Shown: piece by piece, positions 37 to 17,012 of the stretch | How positions within the stretch are numbered: position 1 is the stretch's first letter | Layout: the number at the start of each line of letters is the position of its first letter | Virus record (IMG/VR): IMGVR_UViG_3300025697_003303 | Length of the DNA stretch: 20,000 nt | From: an uncultured virus (IMG/VR IMGVR_UViG_3300025697_003303) | Lineage: Duplodnaviria > Heunggongvirae > Uroviricota > Caudoviricetes | Strand: one strand, 5' to 3' | Notes under the pieces: generated by a model | What the model saw: the letters and a program-made list of their open reading frames with translations, nothing else | Told to the model about the DNA's origin: nothing | The model's database searches: none | Position numbers and translations under genes: made by a program

Positions 37-237
37 TTATGAATTGTTTCTATTCTTGTTTTTTCTAGAGTTCTTCGGTTCCCAGAGTTTTTTAACTTCA
101 TCTTCGCTCTCAGGGAGTTCTGGTGATTCAAACAATACATGACCTTGTTGACCTACATCTCTGCTCTTCCAGAAATTAGGGTACATATCCCAGCTTCCAG
201 CCAGTTTAATATATTCACTTGTCTTTATTATTCTCAT
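37..237 (-). CDS. Small hypothetical protein (66 aa) with basic C-terminal tail
   Basis: ORF track; co-oriented with neighbours; overlaps the 3' end of 215..394. Confidence 0.7.
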   Translation of the reverse strand: MRIIKTSEYIKLAGSWDMYPNFWKSRDVGQQGHVLFESPELPESEDEVKKLWEPKNSRKNKNRNNS

Positions 238-2014: not shown

Positions 2015-3238
2015 CTACCTTCTATCTATATTAAGGTTGAGATCATAAGTCCAAGTAATACCTCTTTTATCGTGTATTCCAAACATTTTCTGTTCTGGCA
2101 TAGACGATTTTTGAAGATTTTTCAAAGAGAATATGTCGCCACCGACGAAACTCCCATTTAGAAGGACTTTACCATGATTTGTAGATAACTCCGCAGTACT
2201 ATGATAATGACCAGCTATAGTATAATCGGGAATATCTTTCAAGATACCTATCATTTTTTGCTCAAAATCTAACAAGCTTTTAGCGGGCCATGACATTCCT
2301 CTCATATCGTCTCCATGGACGACGAGGAACTTATGACTTCTTATTTTTTCAAATATCCACCATGTTTTAGGAACATTAAACTTAACTCTTGGATTATTTT
2401 TGAATCTGCCCATAAGGAACTGGTAACACATGAAATCCCAATTGACGTATTCTTTTTCTGAGCCTCGCTTACTAGCCCGCCCATGATTTCCGAACACACC
2501 ATAAAAATTAATCTCTTTAAAGATTTCTAACCAATGATCTATCATTTGAGCAAGAGCTTCAACGCCTTCAACGAACTGTTCAAATATAGGCATATTAATA
2601 TAGATAGGAGACCATGCTCCAACATCATTCATACCAGCAACAATATCTCCTAAACAAAATATATGAAGCGTATCTAAAGCATACAGTTTGGAATGAAGAT
2701 CAACAATATCAGTAGCAGCATATTTAAGATTCTCAACTCTCTGTTTAAAAATCTCTAAATTATACTCTCCTAATCCACCAGTTTCTTCCATAGAGAATTC
2801 CTGACCGATATGACAATCGCTAATAATAATTCCGACATCCTCTACATGATCTTTCTTCGCATGTTTACGCCTCGGTTTTCTGGGAGCAGGAACTTTTGGA
2901 AGAGCTTCTATCGCTCTAACTATTCTATCTCCTATAATATCTGCTTTTACTTTAGCAACGCCAATCCTCTTATCTCTAAGTTGCGTTAGTCTCTCAAGAT
3001 AAGCCTTCTTTAGTCCCTCTTTGATAGTATGTTTAGTTGTATCATAAAAAGGTTTATTAACCCAAATAGTATTTCTGTATTTTTTTTCGCAAGCACTAAC
3101 AGAACGATCAAATAGTTCTGAAGATATGATACGATACGGAATGCCATCTTCTCGCATACTATACAACATTATCTCTTCGTTTTCAGTCCAAGGTGCGGGT
3201 CTAATCTTACTCTTGCTCTTGCTTTTATTTTTACTCAT
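2015..3238 (-). CDS. Calcineurin-like metallophosphoesterase (possible nuclease) with N-terminal Myb/SANT-like helix-turn-helix
   Basis: Motifs DCH, LGDIV, GNHG, HGD and GHYH in the canonical order; N-terminal WTENEEIML...RSVSACEKKY. Start placed at ATG 3238 (ATGA overlap with the upstream stop, AAAGG upstream) rather than 3259. Confidence 0.85.
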   Translation of the reverse strand: MSKNKSKSKSKIRPAPWTENEEIMLYSMREDGIPYRIISSELFDRSVSACEKKYRNTIWVNKPFYDTTKHTIKEGLKKAYLERLTQLRDKRIGVAKVKADIIGDRIVRAIEALPKVPAPRKPRRKHAKKDHVEDVGIIISDCHIGQEFSMEETGGLGEYNLEIFKQRVENLKYAATDIVDLHSKLYALDTLHIFCLGDIVAGMNDVGAWSPIYINMPIFEQFVEGVEALAQMIDHWLEIFKEINFYGVFGNHGRASKRGSEKEYVNWDFMCYQFLMGRFKNNPRVKFNVPKTWWIFEKIRSHKFLVVHGDDMRGMSWPAKSLLDFEQKMIGILKDIPDYTIAGHYHSTAELSTNHGKVLLNGSFVGGDIFSLKNLQKSSMPEQKMFGIHDKRGITWTYDLNLNIDRR

Positions 3239-3945
3239 ATTAAACCTTTCTTTCTCCATCGATCTAACAATATTAGATGAGATTCTTTCATTTCTGAAGA
3301 TCTACCATAAGTCAGACCATTCCTATTAAGTCTATATTTTATCAAGGGAGTTTCCAATGTGCAGAAATTAAATCCAGAGAATAAGCATCTTCCCCAAAAT
3401 TCGAGATCATGAACGAGTTGAAAATCCTTATCTTTTGTATATTTTCCAATTTTAATAAAATCATCTCTTTTAAACATCGCAGAAGGATTTATTATCGGAT
3501 TCTTCCCGGACGCTATTGCATTTATCATACCTGAATTACTATTAGGAGGATGACTCCATTCCCTCATTCTTAGTCCATCCTCATTAACAATTATAGCGTA
3601 TCCTCCTACACAAAATAAACTTTTATCAGATTTTAACATTTTAACTTCTTGTTCTAAACGAGAAGGAAGACTGATATCATCTGCATCATGTATCGCAATA
3701 TACTCTCCCTCCGCTATATCTATTGAAAAATTAGAACGAAAAGGCACTCCCATATTTTCTTCATAACCCCAAAACTCTATTCTTTCGTCTTTAAAAGATC
3801 TGATAATTTCAGCAGTCCTATCTGTAGATCCATCGTTTATGATTATAAATTCAAAATCTTCATATGTCTGATTTAATATGGAGTTTATAGATTCTTCTAT
3901 AAATTTCTCACAATTATATACTGTAGTTATAACGCTGATTTTCAT
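3235..3945 (-). CDS. Glycosyltransferase family 2 (GT-A fold)
   Basis: MKISVITTVYN, IIINDGSTDRT, DADD (DxD), HDLEFW. Likely start is the ATG at 3945, where the GT2 domain begins. Confidence 0.92.
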   Translation of the reverse strand: MKISVITTVYNCEKFIEESINSILNQTYEDFEFIIINDGSTDRTAEIIRSFKDERIEFWGYEENMGVPFRSNFSIDIAEGEYIAIHDADDISLPSRLEQEVKMLKSDKSLFCVGGYAIIVNEDGLRMREWSHPPNSNSGMINAIASGKNPIINPSAMFKRDDFIKIGKYTKDKDFQLVHDLEFWGRCLFSGFNFCTLETPLIKYRLNRNGLTYGRSSEMKESHLILLDRWRKKGLI

Positions 3946-4678
3946 AAAGCAAACTCTCACTCATTTTTATTCTTTTATGAAATGGAGGACTATAGTTCTT
4001 CCATTTTTCTCTAAAATACTTTAAACTTTTACGAAAATTTTTATGTTTATCTTCTTGCGAAATTATTGACATTGTTTGATGAGGCTTATGCATGATTCTA
4101 GCGTATGGATTCCATCCAAGATGAAAGCCCCTTTTATGACATCTAAAATTAAAATCAGGGTCTTCAAAGTACATTGGGCTAAAATTAGTATCGAATAAAC
4201 CGATTTCTTCAACGACTCTCCTCCTAATAAGCATACCACCGGCTCCAACATAAGTATAATAGTCTGTTGGATTCTGTGCTATACGAAGAGGTCTAAAGTT
4301 TTCGCTCATCTCCCAAGCTTCTACGCCCAAGACATCATAAAGACCTTGCTTCATAAAAAAGAGATGTTGATCAAGCCACTCTTTCTCGACAAATTGATCA
4401 TTGTCTAAAAAGAGCAAGTAATCATATTCTAAATGTTTACTCTTTTCGTATCCAGTATTCCTACCATCAATGACGCCGCTATTATGATCTAAAGAAATGA
4501 TATGAACATTATCTCTATCTATTTTTTCTAAATACTCTTTCGTACCATCTGTTGACCCATTGTCTACGATAACCAAATGGTAATTCCCATAAGTATTGTC
4601 AAAAAATTGAGTTAGAAATTGTTTAGTAACATTAATTTTATTGTGCGTTAATACTATTATGCAAGTTGAATCAGAAAT
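3914..4678 (-). CDS. Glycosyltransferase family 2 (GT-A fold); start codon uncertain
   Basis: VIVDNGSTDGT, FLDND, YFEDPDF. The frame stays open upstream of the track's TTG (4576) and encodes the GT2 first strand (STCIIVLTHNK); candidate ATT start at 4678 or 4681 behind GGAGG. Confidence 0.88.
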   Translation of the reverse strand: MSDSTCIIVLTHNKINVTKQFLTQFFDNTYGNYHLVIVDNGSTDGTKEYLEKIDRDNVHIISLDHNSGVIDGRNTGYEKSKHLEYDYLLFLDNDQFVEKEWLDQHLFFMKQGLYDVLGVEAWEMSENFRPLRIAQNPTDYYTYVGAGGMLIRRRVVEEIGLFDTNFSPMYFEDPDFNFRCHKRGFHLGWNPYARIMHKPHQTMSIISQEDKHKNFRKSLKYFREKWKNYSPPFHKRIKMSESLLYENQRYNYSI

Positions 4679-4743: not shown

Positions 4744-7700
4744 TTATACGCTGATATTAACAGATGCATTAAAGAACGAACACTCTCCAACGCCTCTCAG
4801 AGTGAAATCTCCGAGTACACCTTCGCTTGTTTCATCACAACACAATGTAGAATCAGAAATGTCTTTAAACCTATCATTCTCTAAGGTTACACATGTGCAT
4901 TCGTTAGGATCTGCACCAAAGACAGCAATGTCAGAAGATCTATCATAAATTTGAGCATAATAAGTTTGGTCTGTCTTACAATATATTACAATCAAAACAA
5001 CGTTAGCTGCGATTCTAGAGAACCACCATCCAACAAACCCAACAGTATCTAACGTAGCATCGTATGCATAAGTTCCTTGTACTCTCTCGTAGCAAGAATT
5101 CCCAGGGACAGAATCAATAAAAACTGAAGCTGTTGTTTGTGTAGGATCGTTACATGTAATCCATGGGAAGTCAGAGCAGACGTTCCCGCTAGTTGCTGTA
5201 GGAGTAGTCCCTTGTAAATAATCTTTAATACTTTTTTCCGTAGCAAACATCTCAGAAAATCCGTGGAAACTAATTTCTGTATTAACATCGCTGTTGTCAA
5301 TTCTAAACCCAGATCTTATTTTACTAGGATCTTGTATTCTAATAATATAATTATCATACATTTTTGTAGAGAACACTACCAATCCATCTCTAGGATGTAA
5401 CTCATAAGAACTAGATGATATCGTATTATTAGAAGAATCGAAGATAGTAACACTTGATTCGTAATCCCAACTTCCATATGTTGCCTTGAATTCATAATTA
5501 TCTACATTAACTAAAGATTCAGAACGAATACCTACAATATTTCTATTCCTTACTGGCAAGACTACTCCACCGCCTGCATTTGGGCGTGACGGCTTAGCTC
5601 CGCTATCAAAATCGTTCCAGTTATGAGATGCAGAAGTAGAGACCCCAAACTTTACTTCTCCTTCATCTGTAGAATCTAGAGTTGATACAACTTGTCGATT
5701 ATTGTCATCAACAGTATGCTCATTGACGAATAAATAATCTGTTTTTACAGCAGTATATGTTAATCCGAATCCCTCTATTAAAGGATGTCCCGTAGAAGAC
5801 CCATCATTCACTTCTTCATTTGTAGTTGTAAGACAACTTGTTATCTTCATGTCTAGTTTTACATATCTTACATCTAGATCAGAAAAACCAACATCAAAAC
5901 CAGGTTCAAAATAAATCGTATATGGAGAATAATCATAACCATCATCACTAGCAGACATTCTCCACTCTCCTGACGTATTCGCTGGTAATTCGAATAAAAC
6001 GTTCGCAGAATTAAGATTAACAACTTCTCCAAAATCAATAGTATAGATAGCAGATCCATAACCCAAAGAACCTTTAGTCTTCCCTGTCATTATGCAAACT
6101 AAATCATCCTCAAAAGAATCAGATACGATACTAAAACTTTGTCCACCAGTATGATATGACAATTTATCTAAAATAATAGAACCAGTCCTATCTATACTAG
6201 ACGAGATAACAGAAGGATTCTTCAATGACAAATTGCCAACGATAAGAGGAACCTCTTGATAGTTGTCTATATCATTAACAGCATCAATCGCTTCTTGATA
6301 ATTCTTCGTAGAAACATTTGGACTATTATCTGCAAAAGTATAGATAATCTTATCGTTGGCGTCATAACTCTGATCATTCAAAACAGTAGAAACAGTGTAC
6401 AATGAGTCATACAAAGGAGAAGACCCGAATGGAATTTCTTCAGATATAGTATCTATAATAGTTAAAGCTTCACTACTGACAACGGCTCCACTACTCGTAT
6501 GATCTATAACCGAAGGAACTGTCATATTACTAGACAAAATATCAGTTGAGACTGAATTGTTCTGGTAGAGAGGAGCAGATACGATCTTAAAAACATTATC
6601 GCTAAAAATAGATTTAAAATTAAGCGATGCAATTGTTATGTTAGAGGTGACAGGAACTATACAAGAAGGCGAAAGAGTAGCAGCCTCACTAGCGTCATTA
6701 ACTATAGAGACTAATGTCTGTCCATAATATGAAGTAAACCCGCCAGAAGCAGTACCAACAGTCTCTGGGACAAACCCATCCACTATAGTAGACTGAAGAA
6801 CTATTTTATATAGATTATTATCTAACCCTTCTGTAAATACCATCTCGTCAACGACTCCTTTAATCATATCGTCGGAACGAGGTTTCAAAGAGAATACAGA
6901 TTCTCCATCTATGACACTTATTTCATCTTCATCAAATAATACATTATATGGCAAAAAGCTTTCTGGGATCAATGTTATATCTTCTGCATCTGACAATTGT
7001 AAGTACCCTGCAAGCTTTACTGTCGCTAAAACATCAACATTACCGCCGTCATCAACAGCACTTACTTTAGCTCCTAAATACTGATTTCCGTTAAGAGACA
7101 TTCCATCTTCATATGGTTCAATAGATATCTTGAGAAAACCATTACCCTTTCCACTTTCTATCCCGCCTACATACATAACATGAGAATGACCATTATACGA
7201 AACAATCGCAGCAGCACCGCCATCCTTTGATTTGGTAGTATTACCTAATTCTAAAACATCATATGGGATATCACCGCCTATATTTTCAATAGATTCAAAC
7301 ATCTTAAGTGTTTCTGAATTAGAATTAAAACCGCCTATAGAATAAACTCTTCCTCCGTCAATAGCAGATGCAGAAAAACATCTAGGCTGCAACATATGAT
7401 TAAACTTATTATTAATGACATCAAGAGACCCAGAAGAAACATTATATGAAAAACCTGTAGCATAATATTCCAAAGAAGCATCTATTTTTTGAAAAGCTCC
7501 AGACAAAACAACTATATCATTACCATCAACAAATGACAAAGGAGAAATCCTACTATAAGTTTTAAACTCTGTCTCAGATATTGCGTCAGAATATCCCCAC
7601 TCATCGCTACTTATGTTATAATGAAGAATTCTATCATTGTAATCCACGAAAGATCCATTATCTGTTATATCTCTAATACCACTAACAATATATATCCTAT

Positions 7701-10700
7701 TCAGAGAAGGAATATATGTGGCAGAACCAAAAGCGATTCCATACCCAACCTTATCGATAGAGCCTATATCTATTAATGGCATACTCTCCATTTCGCTCCA
7801 TGTATCAGTAACCGCATCATACTTTTCAGTTGCTCTAGAAGTATATACTATATTTTTTGTTTTATCATATTGTATCCCGCCAAATATATATATGTCCGTA
7901 CCAACAACAACGGACATTGCTCCCATTCTTTCAGTTGGCATAGATGTCATTGTCATCCATGAGTCATTAGATATGTTATATCTTTCAACAGTAGGAAGTA
8001 TTTCGTTCGCACCAATACCGCCAATAGCATATAGCTGGTCTAAAACAGACTCAACACATAAATGCCCTCTAGCAGTAGACATTGAAGATGACTGAGACCA
8101 TTCATTCGTAAACGTATCGTATTTATCTGTTCTAACACTAAAAATACTTCTAATATTATCAGAGGATGATTGATCTTTCCAATCATCTGAATCGTTTCTC
8201 AACAATAGGCATATCGTCTCTGTTCTCTTTATGTTCCCTATATTATCATCAAACAAAGAATATGTTGCAGTAAGATATATATTCGCAGCAATATCTTTAT
8301 TAGACTGTAAAGGCTGCAATTCTACAGTGGCATAGCTTCTCTCTCTATCTGCATCTACTTCAGTGTCAACATAAGTTAATGTCTTTATTTTACTATCAAC
8401 AGCTTGAACTGAATTCTCCGTGTGATTAACTATTTTTATATCTATTTCCGTACCGTCTGGAACAAAAGTATCTGCAAAAGAGACATCTAATATAAATTGA
8501 TTAATTGATTTTCCATCTAATATTACTCCCTCTATTCTACTAATATCATCTCCATTTTTAGCCCTCCTATCTACGACTCTTATTCTCAATGATTCTTCAG
8601 GGACCAAAACTGTCGGTACTAAACCATTCCCAAATGATCCTCCACCAGTAAGCGTTAGAGTTTCATTATCAAAAACAGAAACGATATGACCCGTAACAGT
8701 TATCTCATTATTATACAGTGAGTACTTATCTGCTGCTATAGGAGCACAATCTGTACGTAGACTCTCAAATCCTGTAATTTCTGCATCAGTATCTTTTCTG
8801 TTTAGTCTAAAATATACAAAAGTATTATCATACTGAGAAAGATTAACTGACGCTGCTCCGTGATCAATAGTAGCATTATCTGTATTAAGAACCCATCTAT
8901 CGAGATATGGGTCAAGATACTCAACAACATCTCCCCAAATTACCTCAACTTCTGGATCGCTCGTATCGATTCTAATCATCATGCCATGATTTAGTTGATG
9001 GATTTCATTACCCACAGAAGTCATACATTGTCTAAACGGTTCAGAATACTTAGTAGTAGAAGTCTCAGCATTATGAGAAATAGTGAGGGTCGCATACCCG
9101 ATACCATCACTCCAAAACTTTTGTTTCAGGTCAGCAAACTCCATCAAGAGATTAGAAGACATTACTCTATGCCCCTTTTCCCTTAGAGGTATAAGTTCTA
9201 TTACTTGAGAATCGCTTGCTGTCAAACCATCATAAAAGACAGACACATTCATTGTATGCGTTTCATACTCAAAACCAGAACCATCTATTTGCACATTATT
9301 AATCGGTCCTAAAAATACATTTCTAGCAACACTTTTATTCAAGAAAGAAAAGATACCGTTTGGATCACCAGTATTATCTTTAGAATAAAAGATTCTATCA
9401 ATAGCATTATCCTTTTTAGTTAGACTCCATTCGGCTGTAGCTGTGTCAGGTAAGAAGGTTCTTTTAGACAGATCTTTAGGATCGTCTGGATCTAACATAT
9501 AAACAATCGCTGTTTGTTCTAAAATCTGACGACCATCAGATAAAGGAACATTAGGCTGTATGTCAACCACTAAAGGATTCCCGAAAACGATTAATTTCTT
9601 TTTTACAATTGTCGAACCATTACGCAAACGAACTTTTATATACAATAAAACAGTTTGAGCTTGATCTGGAGTCGCCAAAGATATATCTGCATAAGTTACA
9701 TTTTCTGTTTCGCCAGTTAAAACTCCATATATATCTCTTTTTTCTCTTGTCCCTGAAACAACCTCGATAGCACTATTGACATAAGAATAAACGCTCAACA
9801 AACCTGTCACTGGTTGGACTTCATCTACATCAAAATCTACTGTAGCATCATAAACTGTAGCACTAACAACTGTATTATTAGATCTAGCAGAAAGATATTC
9901 ATCTTTTAAGTAAACTCTAGAGATATAAGAAGAAGATGACGTAGCATATGTTCCGTTATAATTAGCAGTAGAAGACGGTATCTGACTATCTAACGCATTT
10001 ATCTTTTGTTTACTAACCACTTCAACGTACTTGCTATCTTTATTCTCTACTTCAAATGATAATTTATTTTTCCACTCTACTTGAATAATTCTTGATTTAT
10101 ATACGAATTCAAGACCCTCAAAAGACACAGTAAATCTTATTGACAATAATACAGATTGTAAGTTAGACAAGAGAGAAACATCTTTTGTCAACCTCAAAAT
10201 CCCTCTCGATAAACCGTTGTCCAATTTTGTAACCGTCAATCCATATAATTCATTTATATCTGGAGCGTTTACAGCAGTATCTCCAGCAAAAATATCTTCA
10301 GCAACATCGTCTGGATATGTATAAGACGCATTTTCGATTTCCCATGAGATAGTATAATCTCTACTAATATGATTATCAGATTGATCGGTCATCTTCATAT
10401 AGAAGACAATATTCTCGTCAAAGAAAGTACTTATGTCTCTTTTTGGAACAAAATTATCCCACAAAACCTTCAAACTTGAACCGCTTACTATTTCATAATG
10501 TACGTTTTTAACATCTTCCAAAGGAATTTGAGATTCACTTAGACCGCTCAAAGGGATTATGCTAACAGTGCTGGAACTAGATGGTCTCCCAAACATATCA
10601 ATAGTAGATATCGTATAATAATAACGAGTATCATTGCTTAATAATCTGTCTATATATTTAATTTTAAATACATCATCGTCAAAAACTAAAATACCATCAC

Positions 10701-12672
10701 TATTCCCATATTCATCAAAAATAGGAAAACCTGTTGTAGATCGATATATCCTTATTCTCTTAATTCTCTCGTCTGAAGCATCAAGATCCCATTTCAAATA
10801 AACTTTCCTATCTCCTGCCACTCCCTCAAATCCATAAGGGGCAGACAAAGAAGAAGATAAAGAAGAAACAAGCTCTCTACTTTCTGTATCTATATCTGGA
10901 ATAAGAACAGCAATCGACATAGCATCATCGATATTACAAACATTACCACTACTATTCTGAGAGAAAATTCTAAAATATTGGTTTTCACCCAAAATAAAAT
11001 TATCTTGGAACGTAGTATAAAAATCTCCATCAGATGTTATAGTATTAAAATATATCTCTTGACCGTCACCTTCGTAAGAAGGAATCCTTATATCGTTCGA
11101 TACGATACTAACGATATTACCATTGAAGTTATATATTTCTGGAATCGTAAATTTAAGAACAACTAATCTATCACCATTATCATTTCTAAAAATATTATGT
11201 TGATCTAGAATATAATCAAAATCTTTCAGATCATTATATATAACGACTTCACATATTTCTCCGAAGAAGCTATCTACATTCGCAACTGCTCCCCTATTAT
11301 ATCCTATATCAAAATACATATCTCCTATAGATAAATTAAGAGAACCTAAAATGGCAGACCCTACAGGAGAACCGTTAACGTAAAAAGAAACAGAACCATT
11401 AGACATATTGATAGAAACATCTATTTTATTCCACTGATTCAAAGTTAAGACATCAATAGAAGATGAGACAATAGCAAAACCAGTATCAAAGGTCAAACCT
11501 CCATCAGTATTCGTATATAAAGCATAGTTTGCGATTGCTCCATCCTGCCTCATAATAATAGCTTTATTAGACGCAAAATTATAAGGTTTAATCCAAGAGC
11601 TAATAGTTATACTCTCATCTTCTCTTAATTCAAAAGTAGAGGTAACAGACTGTGTAGTTACAGCAGTAGTTTCTCCGTTAAAACGCAAACCTGATTTACC
11701 GAATGGTACGTCATCTGCATTTAACCAAATTGCATTAGACTCTGATACGATTAAATCAGAAGATGAAGTAAAATCATATAAAATTTGACCTTCTGCTTCA
11801 TCGAAATGCCAAAGACCCCATACTGTGCTGTCTACAATGACTCCAGATCCTATCAAAATTTCAGAACTAAAGGTTTTTACACCCCTAGGAAGACTTTCGT
11901 CATTAGGAGTTACTTGTATCCTAACTCCATCACTAAACTGATAATTAGTATTGAATGTATAAATACCGTAATAGTATGTTTTATTTGCTTCAATTCCTAA
12001 ATCTTGTATGCCATTAGAAATACCATCAAATAATATCTCTCCATCTATAGGATTAGAAGGAAAAGAATCTTCTCTTCTTACAACTCTAATCCCTGCAAAA
12101 TTATTAAGAGTATCATTAAATAAGTATTGTTGATAGAATTCGGAGTTTAGAGCACTAAGTTGGTTATTTGATTCTAAATCAGCCGTTACAGAGAGTTTTA
12201 TTTTTTGACCCCCAAAGGTAAAGATTTTATACAAAACCTCGGCAGGATAGCTCCCAGATACCTTGCTGACGAACCTCTTAGCTAGGTCATGTCTAAATCC
12301 ACCCTCATCATTCCAAGACATGCTTCCACTCTCATCGAAAAGAATAGACACGATACTATCATTAAAATCAAGACCGATATCGTTAAATCCATATGCATCT
12401 GCTTGCAGTTTAGTGCCAAATAGCTCTAAATTATCTGGGTTAAAATATGATCTCGTTAAAGTACTCTGTGTTGGAGAAGTTACGTTAATCCTTTGGTTGC
12501 TAGAATCAAAACCTCCAGATTCATCATCTGAGAATATCTTCATAGCATGTTTTTTTGTATTAGTTACATACCAATTCCCAACAGCCCAATCCCCATCTAT
12601 AGAATAATAAAGACAATAATAATTGACTAAATCCCACTCTCCACTATTCGGATCAAATAAACAAATGTTCAT
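4744..12672 (-). CDS. Giant multidomain adhesin-like or virion structural protein (2642 aa): split vWA, FN3-like repeats, LamG, Ig-like (Big-1-like) repeats, Kelch propeller, Cys-rich C-terminus
   Basis: DESGS MIDAS motif; LWHFDEAEG and TISSWIKP (LamG); GDRKVYLKW...YYYTIST (FN3); LYAIGG, IYIFGG, VYSIGG with W..M..MP (Kelch); acidic, Ser/Val/Ile-rich; no obvious signal peptide. Confidence 0.85.
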   Translation of the reverse strand: MNICLFDPNSGEWDLVNYYCLYYSIDGDWAVGNWYVTNTKKHAMKIFSDDESGGFDSSNQRINVTSPTQSTLTRSYFNPDNLELFGTKLQADAYGFNDIGLDFNDSIVSILFDESGSMSWNDEGGFRHDLAKRFVSKVSGSYPAEVLYKIFTFGGQKIKLSVTADLESNNQLSALNSEFYQQYLFNDTLNNFAGIRVVRREDSFPSNPIDGEILFDGISNGIQDLGIEANKTYYYGIYTFNTNYQFSDGVRIQVTPNDESLPRGVKTFSSEILIGSGVIVDSTVWGLWHFDEAEGQILYDFTSSSDLIVSESNAIWLNADDVPFGKSGLRFNGETTAVTTQSVTSTFELREDESITISSWIKPYNFASNKAIIMRQDGAIANYALYTNTDGGLTFDTGFAIVSSSIDVLTLNQWNKIDVSINMSNGSVSFYVNGSPVGSAILGSLNLSIGDMYFDIGYNRGAVANVDSFFGEICEVVIYNDLKDFDYILDQHNIFRNDNGDRLVVLKFTIPEIYNFNGNIVSIVSNDIRIPSYEGDGQEIYFNTITSDGDFYTTFQDNFILGENQYFRIFSQNSSGNVCNIDDAMSIAVLIPDIDTESRELVSSLSSSLSAPYGFEGVAGDRKVYLKWDLDASDERIKRIRIYRSTTGFPIFDEYGNSDGILVFDDDVFKIKYIDRLLSNDTRYYYTISTIDMFGRPSSSSTVSIIPLSGLSESQIPLEDVKNVHYEIVSGSSLKVLWDNFVPKRDISTFFDENIVFYMKMTDQSDNHISRDYTISWEIENASYTYPDDVAEDIFAGDTAVNAPDINELYGLTVTKLDNGLSRGILRLTKDVSLLSNLQSVLLSIRFTVSFEGLEFVYKSRIIQVEWKNKLSFEVENKDSKYVEVVSKQKINALDSQIPSSTANYNGTYATSSSSYISRVYLKDEYLSARSNNTVVSATVYDATVDFDVDEVQPVTGLLSVYSYVNSAIEVVSGTREKRDIYGVLTGETENVTYADISLATPDQAQTVLLYIKVRLRNGSTIVKKKLIVFGNPLVVDIQPNVPLSDGRQILEQTAIVYMLDPDDPKDLSKRTFLPDTATAEWSLTKKDNAIDRIFYSKDNTGDPNGIFSFLNKSVARNVFLGPINNVQIDGSGFEYETHTMNVSVFYDGLTASDSQVIELIPLREKGHRVMSSNLLMEFADLKQKFWSDGIGYATLTISHNAETSTTKYSEPFRQCMTSVGNEIHQLNHGMMIRIDTSDPEVEVIWGDVVEYLDPYLDRWVLNTDNATIDHGAASVNLSQYDNTFVYFRLNRKDTDAEITGFESLRTDCAPIAADKYSLYNNEITVTGHIVSVFDNETLTLTGGGSFGNGLVPTVLVPEESLRIRVVDRRAKNGDDISRIEGVILDGKSINQFILDVSFADTFVPDGTEIDIKIVNHTENSVQAVDSKIKTLTYVDTEVDADRERSYATVELQPLQSNKDIAANIYLTATYSLFDDNIGNIKRTETICLLLRNDSDDWKDQSSSDNIRSIFSVRTDKYDTFTNEWSQSSSMSTARGHLCVESVLDQLYAIGGIGANEILPTVERYNISNDSWMTMTSMPTERMGAMSVVVGTDIYIFGGIQYDKTKNIVYTSRATEKYDAVTDTWSEMESMPLIDIGSIDKVGYGIAFGSATYIPSLNRIYIVSGIRDITDNGSFVDYNDRILHYNISSDEWGYSDAISETEFKTYSRISPLSFVDGNDIVVLSGAFQKIDASLEYYATGFSYNVSSGSLDVINNKFNHMLQPRCFSASAIDGGRVYSIGGFNSNSETLKMFESIENIGGDIPYDVLELGNTTKSKDGGAAAIVSYNGHSHVMYVGGIESGKGNGFLKISIEPYEDGMSLNGNQYLGAKVSAVDDGGNVDVLATVKLAGYLQLSDAEDITLIPESFLPYNVLFDEDEISVIDGESVFSLKPRSDDMIKGVVDEMVFTEGLDNNLYKIVLQSTIVDGFVPETVGTASGGFTSYYGQTLVSIVNDASEAATLSPSCIVPVTSNITIASLNFKSIFSDNVFKIVSAPLYQNNSVSTDILSSNMTVPSVIDHTSSGAVVSSEALTIIDTISEEIPFGSSPLYDSLYTVSTVLNDQSYDANDKIIYTFADNSPNVSTKNYQEAIDAVNDIDNYQEVPLIVGNLSLKNPSVISSSIDRTGSIILDKLSYHTGGQSFSIVSDSFEDDLVCIMTGKTKGSLGYGSAIYTIDFGEVVNLNSANVLFELPANTSGEWRMSASDDGYDYSPYTIYFEPGFDVGFSDLDVRYVKLDMKITSCLTTTNEEVNDGSSTGHPLIEGFGLTYTAVKTDYLFVNEHTVDDNNRQVVSTLDSTDEGEVKFGVSTSASHNWNDFDSGAKPSRPNAGGGVVLPVRNRNIVGIRSESLVNVDNYEFKATYGSWDYESSVTIFDSSNNTISSSSYELHPRDGLVVFSTKMYDNYIIRIQDPSKIRSGFRIDNSDVNTEISFHGFSEMFATEKSIKDYLQGTTPTATSGNVCSDFPWITCNDPTQTTASVFIDSVPGNSCYERVQGTYAYDATLDTVGFVGWWFSRIAANVVLIVIYCKTDQTYYAQIYDRSSDIAVFGADPNECTCVTLENDRFKDISDSTLCCDETSEGVLGDFTLRGVGECSFFNASVNISV

Positions 12673-12742: not shown

Positions 12743-13726
12743 TGCTTTTATGGCAGATGGACCATCTGTGTCTTCATCAGAGTCAGTAATTTCCCATACA
12801 ACATATTTGTCATCACTAGAACCAGACGAATATAAAACTAAAGCATAGCTATCGCTAAAAGAAATGGCACGAGAACTGTCTAGAAAATTAAGATTAAAAT
12901 TATACCAATCATCAGTTTTTAAATCAGAAATGGTTGTAATATAATCATATATAAACAGAGGTGTAATTGGACGATTATTGCTATCGACTGTATAAAGTCT
13001 AGCATGAATTGTAATATATGGAGCAACAGAAAAATCAGGACCATCACCCGAAACAGCTTCACTAACATCAGATGTTATATAAACCTTATCAATAAAACTC
13101 CCATCTATAGTTGGATGTATCTCTAATGTATGGAGATTTGTATCATTTATGTCTATTACAAGAGAATTCCACTCCCATGATGCAATAGAAGATAAATTAT
13201 CGATATTTCCTATATCAACATTATCTAAAAAAATGTTTGATCTAAAAGAAACTGTCGATGTTCTAGTTCTTAACCATAATCTATATTGTCCTGACGAAGA
13301 GGCTTGTATCGGATAACTAACAGAAGCATAACTCCCAGTCGCGTCTAAAACATCCACTGATAAATAACCTCCACCACAAAATCCAAGTGTAGTATCATCT
13401 GCGATTATTTTATTGGTTCCTTGAGACAAAGATGAAAAATTCAGAGAATCAATAGAAACATTATCAGAAAACGAAAAATAACTACTTTCGTTGTTTAACT
13501 TTGGTCTCAAATAAACAGAAGCTTTTGTAGGAATAAAACGGTCATTAACGCTAAATATTTGTGCTAATTTTACAGATTGACTAGACTGACCAGATCCGCT
13601 ATAATAAAAACCAGCAATTTGCCAACGATCCGCAGCTTCTACGACTCCATCAGGGACTGGCAATACATCGTCCATTTGGGAGAAGTTTAAAGCAGCGGCT
13701 CTTTTTGATGCAGAGTCAACAGCCAT
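12740..13726 (-). CDS. Putative virion protein with carbohydrate-binding-module-like beta-sandwich (328 aa)
   Basis: ASVSYPIQASSSGQYRLWLR...HTLEI...IDKVYIT resembles CBM6/CBM35-type galactose-binding folds; TAATG overlap with the upstream gene and GGAG SD. Confidence 0.7.
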   Translation of the reverse strand: MAVDSASKRAAALNFSQMDDVLPVPDGVVEAADRWQIAGFYYSGSGQSSQSVKLAQIFSVNDRFIPTKASVYLRPKLNNESSYFSFSDNVSIDSLNFSSLSQGTNKIIADDTTLGFCGGGYLSVDVLDATGSYASVSYPIQASSSGQYRLWLRTRTSTVSFRSNIFLDNVDIGNIDNLSSIASWEWNSLVIDINDTNLHTLEIHPTIDGSFIDKVYITSDVSEAVSGDGPDFSVAPYITIHARLYTVDSNNRPITPLFIYDYITTISDLKTDDWYNFNLNFLDSSRAISFSDSYALVLYSSGSSDDKYVVWEITDSDEDTDGPSAIKA

Positions 13727-15075
13727 TAACCAGACTCCATCTCACCTTTAGTAAACAACCCTCCAGCATCACTGATGTCTGATTTTTGGTCTATAATAGT
13801 TTCAGCATCATTATATAACTTAAAAAGATTCGAGTTTTGTTCTTTTCTATTTCTCCAATTCTTATAAAGATAATCTATTTTTGTATTTGTGTCTGCCGAA
13901 ACTGGAGGACTTAACTGTCCCGGCTCTCCTCTGTTTGAAGTAAGTGCTAAAGTATCTGCTAATATATCATTAATTTCACTCGCATTAATGTCAACACCTA
14001 AGCCTGCACCGCTACATATAAACCCATCGCCGAAGAATCCGCCTGCCTCGAAAAACACACCATCAGAAAAAACAGACCTAACGTGCATCCCATACCCAGA
14101 GTTAGTAAAGATAGCCACACCGTCACCTGTCCCACCCGTAATAGTAGCTCCGGTTTCACCTGTAGCGGCAAGTCCTGACCCAGTACCATTTCCTGACACA
14201 ACAAGCCCATCGCCGTCGCCCCCTGTTGAGGTAAACGCTACAGCATCTCCATTACTGGCGTTAATTGTCATGCCAAAGGTTCCTCCATCTATATCGACAC
14301 CGATAACAATAGCATCTATATCAATGCCTATTTGATCGGCATCAATGTCAATACCTGATAGTGCAGCATTGAGATATAAAGCATCTCCACCTGATGCTTC
14401 AAATACTACCGCATCTCCAGTGACACCTGCATTAATATATAATCCATGACCAGAACCATTGCCAACAGCAATAATACCAGAGCCATTGCCTCCATATGAG
14501 GTGGCTATTAAACCAGTACCAGCAATGCCGTCAAGAGCAAGTCCATCAGTGTTTCCAGCGATAGTCATTCCGGTAGTAGAACCGGAAACATTTAGTCCAA
14601 TTCCTCCTGATCCAACGATTGAAGCTCCAACAGTTGAGCCTATAGCACTGAATGCTGTACCAGAGTCATTATCTATATTCAATTCTTTGAGTTTCAGTGT
14701 AGCATTATTCCCATTTGTCAATTCACCGTCAATTTGTGTGACATTCGCAGGCATGGTCGATATGATCGTTCCATTCCACCAGAAAGTTGCACTCGCCACA
14801 ACTATATCGTCAATCGCCGGAGCACCAGCAACCTGCTCATATAACGTAACACAAACAGAAGCATCAGATGTCAATGTCGCTGGGACTGTGGCAATATACT
14901 GATAAGATGCCGCAGGTGTCTCAGTCGAAGTTATGTCATAATTACCCCAATCGGCGGGAACAAATGTCTCATATGCAGCAGCAACATCATCCCAATATTG
15001 CCCTGCCTGATTATTTAACACAACGTACATCGTCTTACCTGTTCGGTCATGTCTGTATCCTGGAAAAGTTGCCAT
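13726..15075 (-). CDS. Gly-rich beta-solenoid, tail-fibre-like protein (449 aa)
   Basis: Central 9-11 aa quasi-repeats (GIDIDADQI/GIDIDAIVI/GVDIDGGTF) between non-repetitive ends; GAGGT SD close upstream of the ATG. Confidence 0.75.
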   Translation of the reverse strand: MATFPGYRHDRTGKTMYVVLNNQAGQYWDDVAAAYETFVPADWGNYDITSTETPAASYQYIATVPATLTSDASVCVTLYEQVAGAPAIDDIVVASATFWWNGTIISTMPANVTQIDGELTNGNNATLKLKELNIDNDSGTAFSAIGSTVGASIVGSGGIGLNVSGSTTGMTIAGNTDGLALDGIAGTGLIATSYGGNGSGIIAVGNGSGHGLYINAGVTGDAVVFEASGGDALYLNAALSGIDIDADQIGIDIDAIVIGVDIDGGTFGMTINASNGDAVAFTSTGGDGDGLVVSGNGTGSGLAATGETGATITGGTGDGVAIFTNSGYGMHVRSVFSDGVFFEAGGFFGDGFICSGAGLGVDINASEINDILADTLALTSNRGEPGQLSPPVSADTNTKIDYLYKNWRNRKEQNSNLFKLYNDAETIIDQKSDISDAGGLFTKGEMESG

Positions 15076-15076
15076 A

Positions 15077-16618
15077 TTACCTCGCTATCCAGCCGCCTTT
15101 GCTGGCTGCTTTTGTTGCTGTATGAGTGGTTATTTTCGTTGCGTTTATACCACCTGTACTTGTAATCTCAGTGCCACGCCCAATAAGCAATTCAGTAATA
15201 GGAGAAACAGTAGCAGGCCATTCTATCACATTTGTTATGCCAATTGATCGCAGAGTCAGTGCGGTTATTACTGGAGTATCTGCACCTGTGACATTACCTT
15301 TTATCGTAAACTCTTTACTGTTAGTGTTGAGAGTAGTCACGCCAGCAGACTCGTTGACAACGAGATTCCCGATTAGCGTTGTGTCATCAGTCAGCGTGAG
15401 CGTTGTATTGTTCGTTGCTGTAGATTCAGCCGTAATTGTCGGTACAGTTATTATATCGTTCAAGTTAACGGTCTTGATGTTCGATGTATCGAATGCTACT
15501 GTTATCGTCGTGGTGCCTGCGAATGTTATTCCATTGTCAATGCTGGTTGCATCGACTCCGGCGATTGATCTGATTGTGTTTTCGGAACCAGTAGCAAGAG
15601 TAAGATTGCCGCTACGATCTGTTGATGCTGCTTTTCCCAACGTAATATCGCCACAAGTCAGCGATCCGGTTGAGAATACCGCTCGGCCAACATGGGAGTT
15701 TGCTATCGCCTCTATGTCGAAACCGGCGTTACCGACATCCACCGAACCTGTAAACGTCACCGGTTTATTGTTGTAATTATGAATAGCCAATAACGAACAT
15801 CCGGTGACAGTAAAGGCTTTTTGATTTACACTTGTCAGGTAGTTCACAATATAAATTGACTCTACGGTAAGCGAGTTGACGGTGTCTTGATCAATACAAT
15901 CATCGCCGGAGATCCACCTCATATACAGGGAGGACGACGCACCGCCTGTTGCAATTCCCGGACCCAATGTTATCCTATCCAGATACGATGTGCTTAAAAA
16001 TGTCGTTGTTTTACCGGCAGCCGCACAGATAAGTTTCGGATGCCCCTTGAGAGCATAAGCATAGCTTCTCTGCTTAAAGGTTCCAGTTCCGGTGAGGTTG
16101 ATGACTAGGTCGGCACCTACGACGCCGTGAACAGCCTCATAGTCGCCGCTAACTGATAATGTAATTGTTTCAACTGTGCCGCTTGAGAAATATGCGTTTC
16201 CGGTGACCACCATTTCGTAGCTGTTTCCTGTCACCGTCCCTCCATCAAGCAGTAAATCGCCAGTAATCGATACCGTACCACCAGCATTATTCGAAAGCGA
16301 TCCATCTGTCCCGATATCAAGACTAGTACACGAAAAAACACAATCGTCTATAGTCGCGGTTATGTCATCGAGAGTGATGTTATTAGTTACAGAAAAAGAC
16401 TGGTCAGAAAATGCCCATTCAGCGGCAGAACCAACGTCGGCATCTAAACTATCAGCAGACCACGGCACATCACAAGTAACCTTGCCAGAGTTAACAGTAA
16501 GTTGTATCGCATCGCCTAATGTAGGAGCAACATGGTCCTTCGCATCGTCATCAGCAATTGACCACGTTGCATCAGAAAAGTTTTGAGCAGTAGTATGTCT
16601 TGGATATAATGTAGCCAT
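15077..16618 (-). CDS. Thr/Gly-rich beta-helix-like fibre or adhesin protein (513 aa)
   Basis: Repeated short beta-strand patterns (VSITGDLLLDGGTV, LTCGDITLG, LIGNLVVN, FTIKGNVTG); elevated GC; stop 1 nt before the next ATG. Confidence 0.72.
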   Translation of the reverse strand: MATLYPRHTTAQNFSDATWSIADDDAKDHVAPTLGDAIQLTVNSGKVTCDVPWSADSLDADVGSAAEWAFSDQSFSVTNNITLDDITATIDDCVFSCTSLDIGTDGSLSNNAGGTVSITGDLLLDGGTVTGNSYEMVVTGNAYFSSGTVETITLSVSGDYEAVHGVVGADLVINLTGTGTFKQRSYAYALKGHPKLICAAAGKTTTFLSTSYLDRITLGPGIATGGASSSLYMRWISGDDCIDQDTVNSLTVESIYIVNYLTSVNQKAFTVTGCSLLAIHNYNNKPVTFTGSVDVGNAGFDIEAIANSHVGRAVFSTGSLTCGDITLGKAASTDRSGNLTLATGSENTIRSIAGVDATSIDNGITFAGTTTITVAFDTSNIKTVNLNDIITVPTITAESTATNNTTLTLTDDTTLIGNLVVNESAGVTTLNTNSKEFTIKGNVTGADTPVITALTLRSIGITNVIEWPATVSPITELLIGRGTEITSTGGINATKITTHTATKAASKGGWIAR

Positions 16619-16630
16619 TTTTCTTTTTTT

Positions 16631-16915
16631 TTACTCTAACTGAGCGTTGGGAAATCGGGTAACCTGTACGGTAACAGAGTAGCGTCTATCCACGACTGGT
16701 TCAGAAGTGCCATTCTGCTGAAGCGAAGTCACACAAAGTTCTCTAGCTTGAGCTATCAGTGCATTCGCAGCCGCTGCATTCGCAGGAGTAGCCTCAAAAT
16801 ATACAGTAGTGAATTTATTACCTTCAGCAGGATAGAATGTCGCCCGATCACGATTTTTAACATATCGAGAAGAGGCGGGAATTGTTTCTAGTTCTGGTGT
16901 TTCAAAATCTGCCAT
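16631..16915 (-). CDS. Hypothetical protein (94 aa)
   Basis: Strong SD AAAGGAG 7 nt upstream of the ATG; co-oriented. Confidence 0.8.
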   Translation of the reverse strand: MADFETPELETIPASSRYVKNRDRATFYPAEGNKFTTVYFEATPANAAAANALIAQARELCVTSLQQNGTSEPVVDRRYSVTVQVTRFPNAQLE

Positions 16916-17012
16916 TATATTACTCCTTTATATTTATATTTAAATTATATCTATCTATTTATTTTTCTAAGTTTGTATTCAATGGTTACTAATTTAACCA
17001 TAAATCGAATGA

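Follow-up and report, generated by a model that had tools for sequence, protein, structure and literature searches.

The DNA analyzed here is a 20,000-nt stretch (the window) of the genome of an uncultured tailed virus of the Caudoviricetes (IMG/VR record IMGVR_UViG_3300025697_003303). The window is AT-rich, with a G+C content of approximately 33%, and its minus strand carries nearly all of its long open reading frames (ORFs). The gene at issue, at positions 4744..12672 (-), encodes a protein of 2,642 amino acids (aa) followed by a stop codon (P0001); an identical protein (P0002) and relatives at 87-88% were also found in public metagenome sets. An initial annotation, made from the sequence alone, had proposed that this protein contains a domain of the von Willebrand factor A type (vWA) that is split by an insertion of about 1,900 residues. 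Our analysis located two pieces related to vWA domains, at aa 108-165 (12178..12351, -) and aa 2066-2200 (6073..6477, -), hereafter the N piece and the C piece. Between them lies an insert of ~1,900 aa (aa 166-2065; 6478..12177, -), extending from strand b3 to the next vWA helix. The short strings on which the proposal had been built all occur in the protein where the initial annotation had placed them: VSILFDESGSMSWND at aa 108-122 (nt 12351-12307), DESGS at aa 113-117 (nt 12336-12322) and YKIFTFGG at aa 148-155 in the N piece, and GSSPLYDSL at aa 2083-2091, KIIYTFADN at aa 2108-2116, VPLIV at aa 2141-2145 and LDKLSYHTGGQSF at aa 2168-2180 (nt 6171-6133) in the C piece.

The N piece was assigned from a match to the first half of the Pfam profile VWA_2 and from an AlphaFold model (m792e416b15ba). 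It is predicted to consist of strand b1 (aa 110-113), the DESGS loop, helix a1 (aa 126-141), strand b2 (aa 150-153) and, at low confidence, strand b3 (aa 161-164). The loop holds the DxSxS motif of a metal-ion-dependent adhesion site (MIDAS), D113-E-S115-G-S117 (12322..12336, -). When the whole protein was scanned, aa 110-167 gave a sub-threshold match to VWA_2 (E 7.4e-4) that was confined to positions 3-57 of the 107 in the profile; the excised N segment matched at E 2.2e-5 with 25.5 bits. The corresponding pieces of relatives matched VWA_2 in 27 of 28 cases and PF00092 in 11 of 28, and those of L007 (27.1 bits), L016 (29.4 bits) and L004 (29.7 bits) passed the VWA_2 cut-off. In a search of the PDB with a profile of 28 aligned N pieces (A2), the best match was the vWA protein PTMP1 (E 0.019), and the remaining eight matches look mostly unrelated. 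The model, obtained with AlphaFold2 on aa 53-262 (alignment A4; predicted local distance difference test [pLDDT] score 71.2, predicted template modeling [pTM] score 0.41), presents the N piece as strand-helix-strand-strand, followed by a linker of low confidence and then by an FN3-like sandwich that was modeled with confidence. The fold-search matches of this model reflect the FN3-like module (all 50 rows), not the N piece.

The C piece was assigned from a second model (mbf1fc420af19) and from fold and profile matches to vWA domains. The elements predicted for its first part are a helix (aa 2066-2077), the G2083-S2084-S2085 loop (6418..6426, -), a second helix (aa 2087-2099) and a strand (aa 2110-2114) followed by D2115; these are succeeded by a helix (aa 2125-2133), a strand (aa 2143-2148), a helix (aa 2165-2174), a strand (aa 2178-2182) and a final helix (aa 2185-2196). 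S2085 falls at the place of the canonical MIDAS threonine, and D2115 (6328..6330, -), within the family consensus TDN/TDG, corresponds to the MIDAS aspartate that follows strand b4. The AlphaFold2 model on an alignment of 28 C pieces (A3; like A2, built by DNA reference) scored pLDDT 71.4 and pTM 0.71 and contains three strands and five helices, arranged as helix, loop, helix and then three strand-helix units. The top Foldseek matches of this model were chains with the vWA fold, namely TFIIH p44/p34, ITIH1, TRAP, vWF A3 and Rpn10. VIA-align superposed it on 71 chains at Z>=8, the best being ITIH1 (6fpz_A; Z 11.4, 132 aligned residues, root-mean-square deviation 2.6). These superpositions always covered only the last ~130-140 residues of the solved vWA domains, as in the CD11b I domain (45..187 of 190), vWF A3 (52..187 of 187), Rpn10 (56..192) and BatB (54..206). 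Against PDB sequences, all seven matches of the A3 profile were vWA-containing chains (E 0.041-0.47), comprising three streptococcal pilus adhesin entries, three TRAP entries and 2ww8. The adhesin alignments (3tvy_A, E 0.041; 3txa_A, E 0.13; 2ww8_A, E 0.47) run from the MIDAS loop to strand b4 only, and the S2085 loop was aligned with the 'GKT' and 'GAT' loops of TRAP and the pilus adhesin. The single-sequence C segment gave only non-significant PDB matches; three of the eight were to the vWA domain of Plasmodium TRAP (E 0.9-1.6), with alignments that span the MIDAS loop and strand b4.

The insert contains at least three recognizable modules. Following the N piece is an FN3-like beta sandwich at aa ~190-259 (11896..12105, -), which was modeled with a pLDDT of ~90; among the fold matches listed for this module (core aa ~194-254), 50 of 50 were of FN3 type (Z 5.8-7.2), and it was undetected by Pfam in the whole-protein scan. 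A LamG (concanavalin-like) domain occupies aa 337-481 (11230..11664, -), with a Laminin_G_3 match at E 2.6e-13 and 50.8 bits against a cut-off of 27.6. A Kelch beta-propeller lies at aa 1517-1784 (7321..8124, -); it was matched by Kelch_1 (E 1.2e-20; 73 bits against a cut-off of 20.1) in three stretches and by related Pfam models, and PDB Kelch chains were matched by the protein with E-values down to 6e-25. Approximately 1,000 unassigned beta-rich residues separate LamG from Kelch, and about 250 more follow Kelch. The LamG and Kelch modules named in the initial annotation were therefore recovered with Pfam, and its FN3 module was recovered as an FN3-like sandwich by modeling and fold search.

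Comparison of the profile coordinates indicated how the two pieces relate to each other. In all nine N pieces that were scanned individually, the match ran over positions 1-3 to 48-61 of the 107 in VWA_2 and over position 2 to 49-60 of the 174 in PF00092. The C pieces, where Pfam detects them, matched VWA_2 at 53-106 of 107 (L028, E 1.3e-3) and PF00092 at 60-166 of 174 (P0140, E 2.3e-4). On the evidence of these alignments, the N and C pieces occupy complementary, adjoining and non-overlapping positions of the profiles, and the first ~45-55 vWA residues that are missing from the C-piece model are the part that the N piece would supply. The N piece matched the first half of vWA profiles only, in keeping with the claim that the fold stops after its first elements, and the C-piece model aligned to the C-terminal part of vWA domains only, as expected if the rest of the domain begins at about aa 2080. 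The two pieces do not belong to separate complete domains: the C-piece model has only three strands and five helices, and that of the N piece has only a strand-helix-strand-strand arrangement.

The residues of the putative metal site are distributed over both pieces and are nearly invariant. In 105 N/C pairs that are non-redundant at 90% identity, D113 was present in 104, S115 in 103 (threonine in one more), S117 in 103 (threonine in one more), S2085 in 104 (threonine in one more) and D2115 in all 105, so that the MIDAS motif of the vWA superfamily is present with serine for threonine at S2085. G2083 was found in 105 of 105 relatives, and G116, W120, D122, G2083, K2108 and G2177 are as fixed as the MIDAS residues. 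In the piece alignments, the identity of relatives to the window protein falls to 22-30%, and overall identity among the sequences drops to ~25-30%.

Both pieces are also retained together across the family. Searching with the whole-length protein gave 20 relatives of 1,887-3,264 aa, and a scan of IMG/VR with their alignment yielded 44 loci, with the gene present in 31 of them (L001-L031) on viral contigs of 28-548 kb. Both pieces were found in 30 of these 31 loci, that is, in all 30 that are complete, L029 being truncated by the end of its contig. Among 1.84 billion cluster representatives, 235 proteins were detected with the A3 profile at E <= 0.001, of which 73 were at E <= 1e-30. Local profiles of both pieces were then run over 170 proteins, including the best 150 of the 235 representatives. 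Both pieces occurred on one chain in 86 of the 170, and the gap between the profile ends ranged from 1,456 to 2,883 residues, with a median of 1,879 and a value of 1,855 in the window protein. A further 80 proteins had the C piece only, two had the N piece only (P0019 and P0020) and two had neither. No contiguous, unsplit vWA form was present among the 170 proteins, and a search for shorter relatives with aa 70-200 returned only two fragments. Thus, the collection of homologues that the initial annotation had called for revealed an insert whose length varies with both halves kept in 86 proteins; homologues do not routinely keep only one half, both being retained in 30 of 30 complete loci, in these 86 of 170 proteins and in nine of nine loci with a split gene.

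In these nine loci, eight from IMG/VR (L005, L016, L019, L021, L023, L024, L028 and L031) and one from a metagenome (L046), the gene takes the form of two adjacent ORFs, with the N piece always on ORF1 and the C piece on ORF2 (9/9). In L016, L019, L021, L024, L028 and L031, ORF1 (~2,000-2,080 aa) ends directly past the Kelch propeller; after its stop codon, an ATG ~2-12 nt on begins an ORF2 of ~1,010-1,060 aa with a conserved N-terminus. A second class of library proteins, of ~1,050-1,100 aa, has Kelch first and the C piece at ~535-715. The one locus read for this class, L046, lies on a 147-kb metagenome contig: ORF1 (1,774 aa) carries the N piece at aa 348-444 (E 5.7e-26) and ends in TAA, and an ATG 2 nt on begins ORF2 (1,080 aa), in which the C piece spans aa 540-708 (E 9.5e-29), so that the split lies before Kelch. 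L046 came from the metagenome scan; the IMG/VR scan for this Kelch-first lineage gave only a Kelch-only match (L045). A clean stop followed by an ATG within 2-12 nt was therefore seen in seven of the nine loci, the six named above and L046. In L005, the giant gene is broken by one in-frame TGA (15764-15766), and the same frame resumes immediately behind it; possible causes are a sequencing error, a nonsense mutation of recent origin, and read-through or recoding. In L023 (16108-16302), the ORF1 stop is followed by an ATG and the N-terminus conserved in ORF2, but the long frame opens ~190 nt later in another frame, which suggests a frameshift or an assembly error. The insert has therefore been cut at two or more places, one behind the Kelch propeller and one ahead of it, with both pieces kept each time, and further length classes, in which the C piece lies at ~335 or ~750 of proteins of 1,090-1,560 aa, suggest more fission points. 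These split-gene forms, which the initial annotation did not anticipate, show that pairing of the pieces must be possible in trans as well.

The remainder of the protein lies outside the two pieces and the insert. The N-terminal segment that precedes the N piece (aa 1-107; 12352..12672, -) includes a beta hairpin modeled at aa 87-101, and its residues W34 and F77 are conserved in the family. A large sub-family of ~3,200-3,280 aa (P0014-P0018, P0022 and others) has an extension of ~330 residues ahead of the N piece, and P0074, P0088, P0092 and P0096 (4,600-5,000 aa) have up to ~2,100 residues there. The C-terminal tail (aa 2201-2642; 4744..6072, -) is beta-rich and matched no Pfam family. Its last ~150 residues (aa ~2490-2642; window 4744-5200, -) are rich in cysteine, including CxC and CC pairs; this end is common only to the closer relatives (P0008 and P0010), and distant relatives have other C-terminal ends, some with ~500 additional residues of repeated modules.

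Downstream of the gene are two family 2 glycosyltransferases (GT2; window 3235-4576, -) and then a metallophosphoesterase that matches the PHROG 'exonuclease'. In L011 (19250-21803), the order is GT2, GT1 (family 1) and GT2, then the metallophosphoesterase/exonuclease, and then a helicase and a Dam-type methylase, so that the order of glycosyltransferase and then exonuclease is conserved between these distant relatives. These glycosyltransferases might have the giant protein, or sugars of the host surface, as their substrates. The upstream ORFs, of 328, 449, 513 and >886 aa, received no name from PHROGs, NCBIfam or Pfam, and their nearest ESM-Atlas clusters are in Uroviricota. As leads, the Atlas matches give a hint of a beta-helix in the 513-aa ORF and a weak one (TM 0.31) of an N-terminus like that of an adaptor or head-completion protein in the 449-aa ORF. 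These two ORFs (window 13726-16618, -) lie in a region with a G+C content of 43-46% (14001-17000), as against ~33% elsewhere, and may be highly expressed virion genes. No close cultured phage was found in the INPHARED set. The surroundings of the gene look like the neck/tail (virion) module of an uncultured tailed phage of large size, and the gene product is likely a giant adhesin or fibre.

We infer that a single vWA/MIDAS domain is probably assembled from pieces that are distant in one chain or encoded by separate genes, a reading that combines separate models of the N and C pieces with profile coordinates, MIDAS invariance and co-retention. The chain would first make b1, the DxSGS loop, a1, b2 and b3 (aa 108-165), then exit for an excursion of ~1,900 residues of autonomous modules, and finally return to add the remaining helices and strands b4-b6 (aa ~2066-2200). 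The pieces would pack as one six-stranded alpha/beta domain, bringing D113, S115 and S117 of the N piece together with S2085 and D2115 of the C piece to form the MIDAS. In the textbook vWA topology, a break after b3 is on the side that faces away from the metal site. The domain would in that case act as a hub or clasp where a closed loop of ~1,900 residues begins and ends, with its metal site left free for an acidic ligand on the host surface or on another part of the virion; in the split-gene relatives, it would form from two polypeptides and constitute a non-covalent joint. The complementary profile and fold coordinates, the invariant MIDAS residues on both pieces and their co-retention thus lend support to the earlier suggestion that both halves fold into one metal-binding domain.

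Several results weigh against this reading. The Pfam scores are low: the N piece of the window protein reaches 25.5-25.8 bits, below the VWA_2 cut-off of 27, its C piece has no Pfam vWA match, and just two of 28 relatives' C pieces match VWA_2 (one of 20 when scanned individually). Since either piece aligns to no more than its half of the profile, a full-length Pfam score is out of reach. The PDB E-values of the C-piece profile are weak (0.04-0.5), and local hhalign comparison with single canonical vWA sequences gave probabilities of 16-43% for the N piece and 4-6% for the C piece, in the expected registers. The MIDAS threonine is replaced by serine in 104 of the 105 relatives. Covariation by mean-field direct coupling analysis of the 105 pairs (Meff ~96) left pairs between the pieces at noise level; a few sensible pairs within the C piece were obtained in the same analysis. 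The N-piece model is of moderate confidence (pLDDT 54-79). Fold matches of the FN3-like module begin at model residue 103-106, so that strand 161-164 may belong to that module instead and the break point carries an uncertainty of ~15 residues. Neighboring ORFs were read for the nine split loci, and the other 71 of the 80 proteins with the C piece only are without a readable neighbor. The role in the virion leans on weak leads, the Atlas matches of the upstream ORFs. Finally, P0138, detected by the C-piece profile at E 6.4e-13, was rejected as independent evidence, as it consists of near-identical vWA repeats that score 5.4 bits each. This protein of 2,693 aa, which is unrelated to the phage family, has 12 near-identical canonical vWA domains in tandem with a period of 224 aa, and it shows that whole-sequence E-values are inflated by repeats.

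A rival reading treats the pieces as sub-domains independent of each other, left over from the decay of one or two ancestral vWA domains, with each now packed against other parts of the giant protein and no single metal site formed. Pfam detects only the N piece in the window protein, and the isolated C piece folds alone with a pTM of 0.71, as such an explanation would have it. We nevertheless regard it as improbable: decayed remnants would not keep five MIDAS residues spread over both pieces in 103-105 of 105 relatives, the profile positions adjoin without overlapping, the C-piece model is without exactly the part that the N piece would supply, and neither piece is ever lost where the context can be read. 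A chance likeness of motifs without homology, or a chimeric contig, could be entertained on the non-significant single E-values of the C piece, but 235 cluster representatives show the same architecture, as do 30 independent viral contigs (28-548 kb), the N piece matches VWA_2 in 27 of 28 relatives and the fold match reaches a Z of 11.4, so that this explanation is effectively refuted.

The other alternative concerns which pieces meet. Pairing might occur only in trans, with the N piece of one subunit joining the C piece of another in an oligomeric fibre by a domain swap, in which case the chains would be linked head-to-tail or in a ring and there would be no loop in cis. The split-gene relatives show that assembly in trans must work, a tether of 1,900 residues would be expected to give little entropic preference for cis, and phage fibres are commonly oligomers. 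We consider exclusive pairing in trans rather unlikely; it is, moreover, a variant and not a contradiction of the single-domain reading, since one vWA fold is formed either way. Assembly of one vWA domain from two pieces also leads to a further idea, which we offer as a tentative possibility. The family may be a natural split-protein system in which N fragments of ~60 residues and C fragments of ~135 residues reconstitute a working metal site and form the sole link between the halves of a giant virion fibre. Repeated fission would then have arisen because the clasp makes the covalent link dispensable, and in single-chain forms the pairing could take place between subunits to give a domain-swapped polymer.

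The phage protein shares its motif set with the canonical vWA and integrin alpha-I MIDAS domains (PF00092 and PF13519; for example, the CD11b I domain 8ce9, vWF A3 1ao3, TRAP 4hqk and ITIH1 6fpz), and the order of secondary-structure elements is the same, with the C piece superposing on the last ~130-140 residues at Z 8.6-11.4. The canonical domains are, however, contiguous over ~180-200 residues, whereas in the phage family 1,456-2,883 residues or a gene boundary lie between b3 and the next helix (1,855 residues between profile ends in the window protein), and the canonical MIDAS threonine is a serine in nearly all phage relatives (104/105). Pilus-tip adhesins offer another comparison: 2ww8, which we take to be RrgA, and 3tvy and 3txa, presumably a streptococcal 'cell wall surface anchor' adhesin, have an adhesin vWA domain that tolerates insertions, and their chains are among the seven PDB matches of the C-piece profile. 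The vWA inserts of pilus adhesins are short, with arms some tens of residues long that remain integral to the domain, in contrast to the string of autonomous domains, ~1,900 residues long, in the phage protein. We know of no split-gene forms of these adhesin domains.

Integrins resemble the phage protein in that one domain interrupts another and the chain leaves and then returns. The beta-I domain is nested in the hybrid domain, which is itself inserted in the PSI domain, and the alpha-I domain is inserted in the beta-propeller (PMC12422189). In integrins, the vWA-type domain is the guest and has ~200 residues, whereas the phage vWA domain would be the host of a multi-domain guest about 10 times larger. 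Both vWA domains and domain insertion are already well known. Our literature searches, including the portion of PMC7824862 that was consulted, found no account of this phage family or of a vWA domain split on such a scale. A domain of ~190 residues that hosts an insert 10 times as large, and is conserved in this form in hundreds of diverged sequences, lies far beyond the examples known to us or found in these searches.

The architecture carries a warning for annotation, in that half-domain Pfam matches below the cut-off at both ends of a giant protein can represent one real domain. The two-gene forms would provide a ready-made instance in which a Rossmann-like domain brings about protein-fragment complementation, with a possible use in engineering as a metal-dependent split-domain tag. 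The family thus bears on the folding of discontinuous domains and on the tolerance of gene fission, as well as on the construction and cohesion of giant phage fibres.

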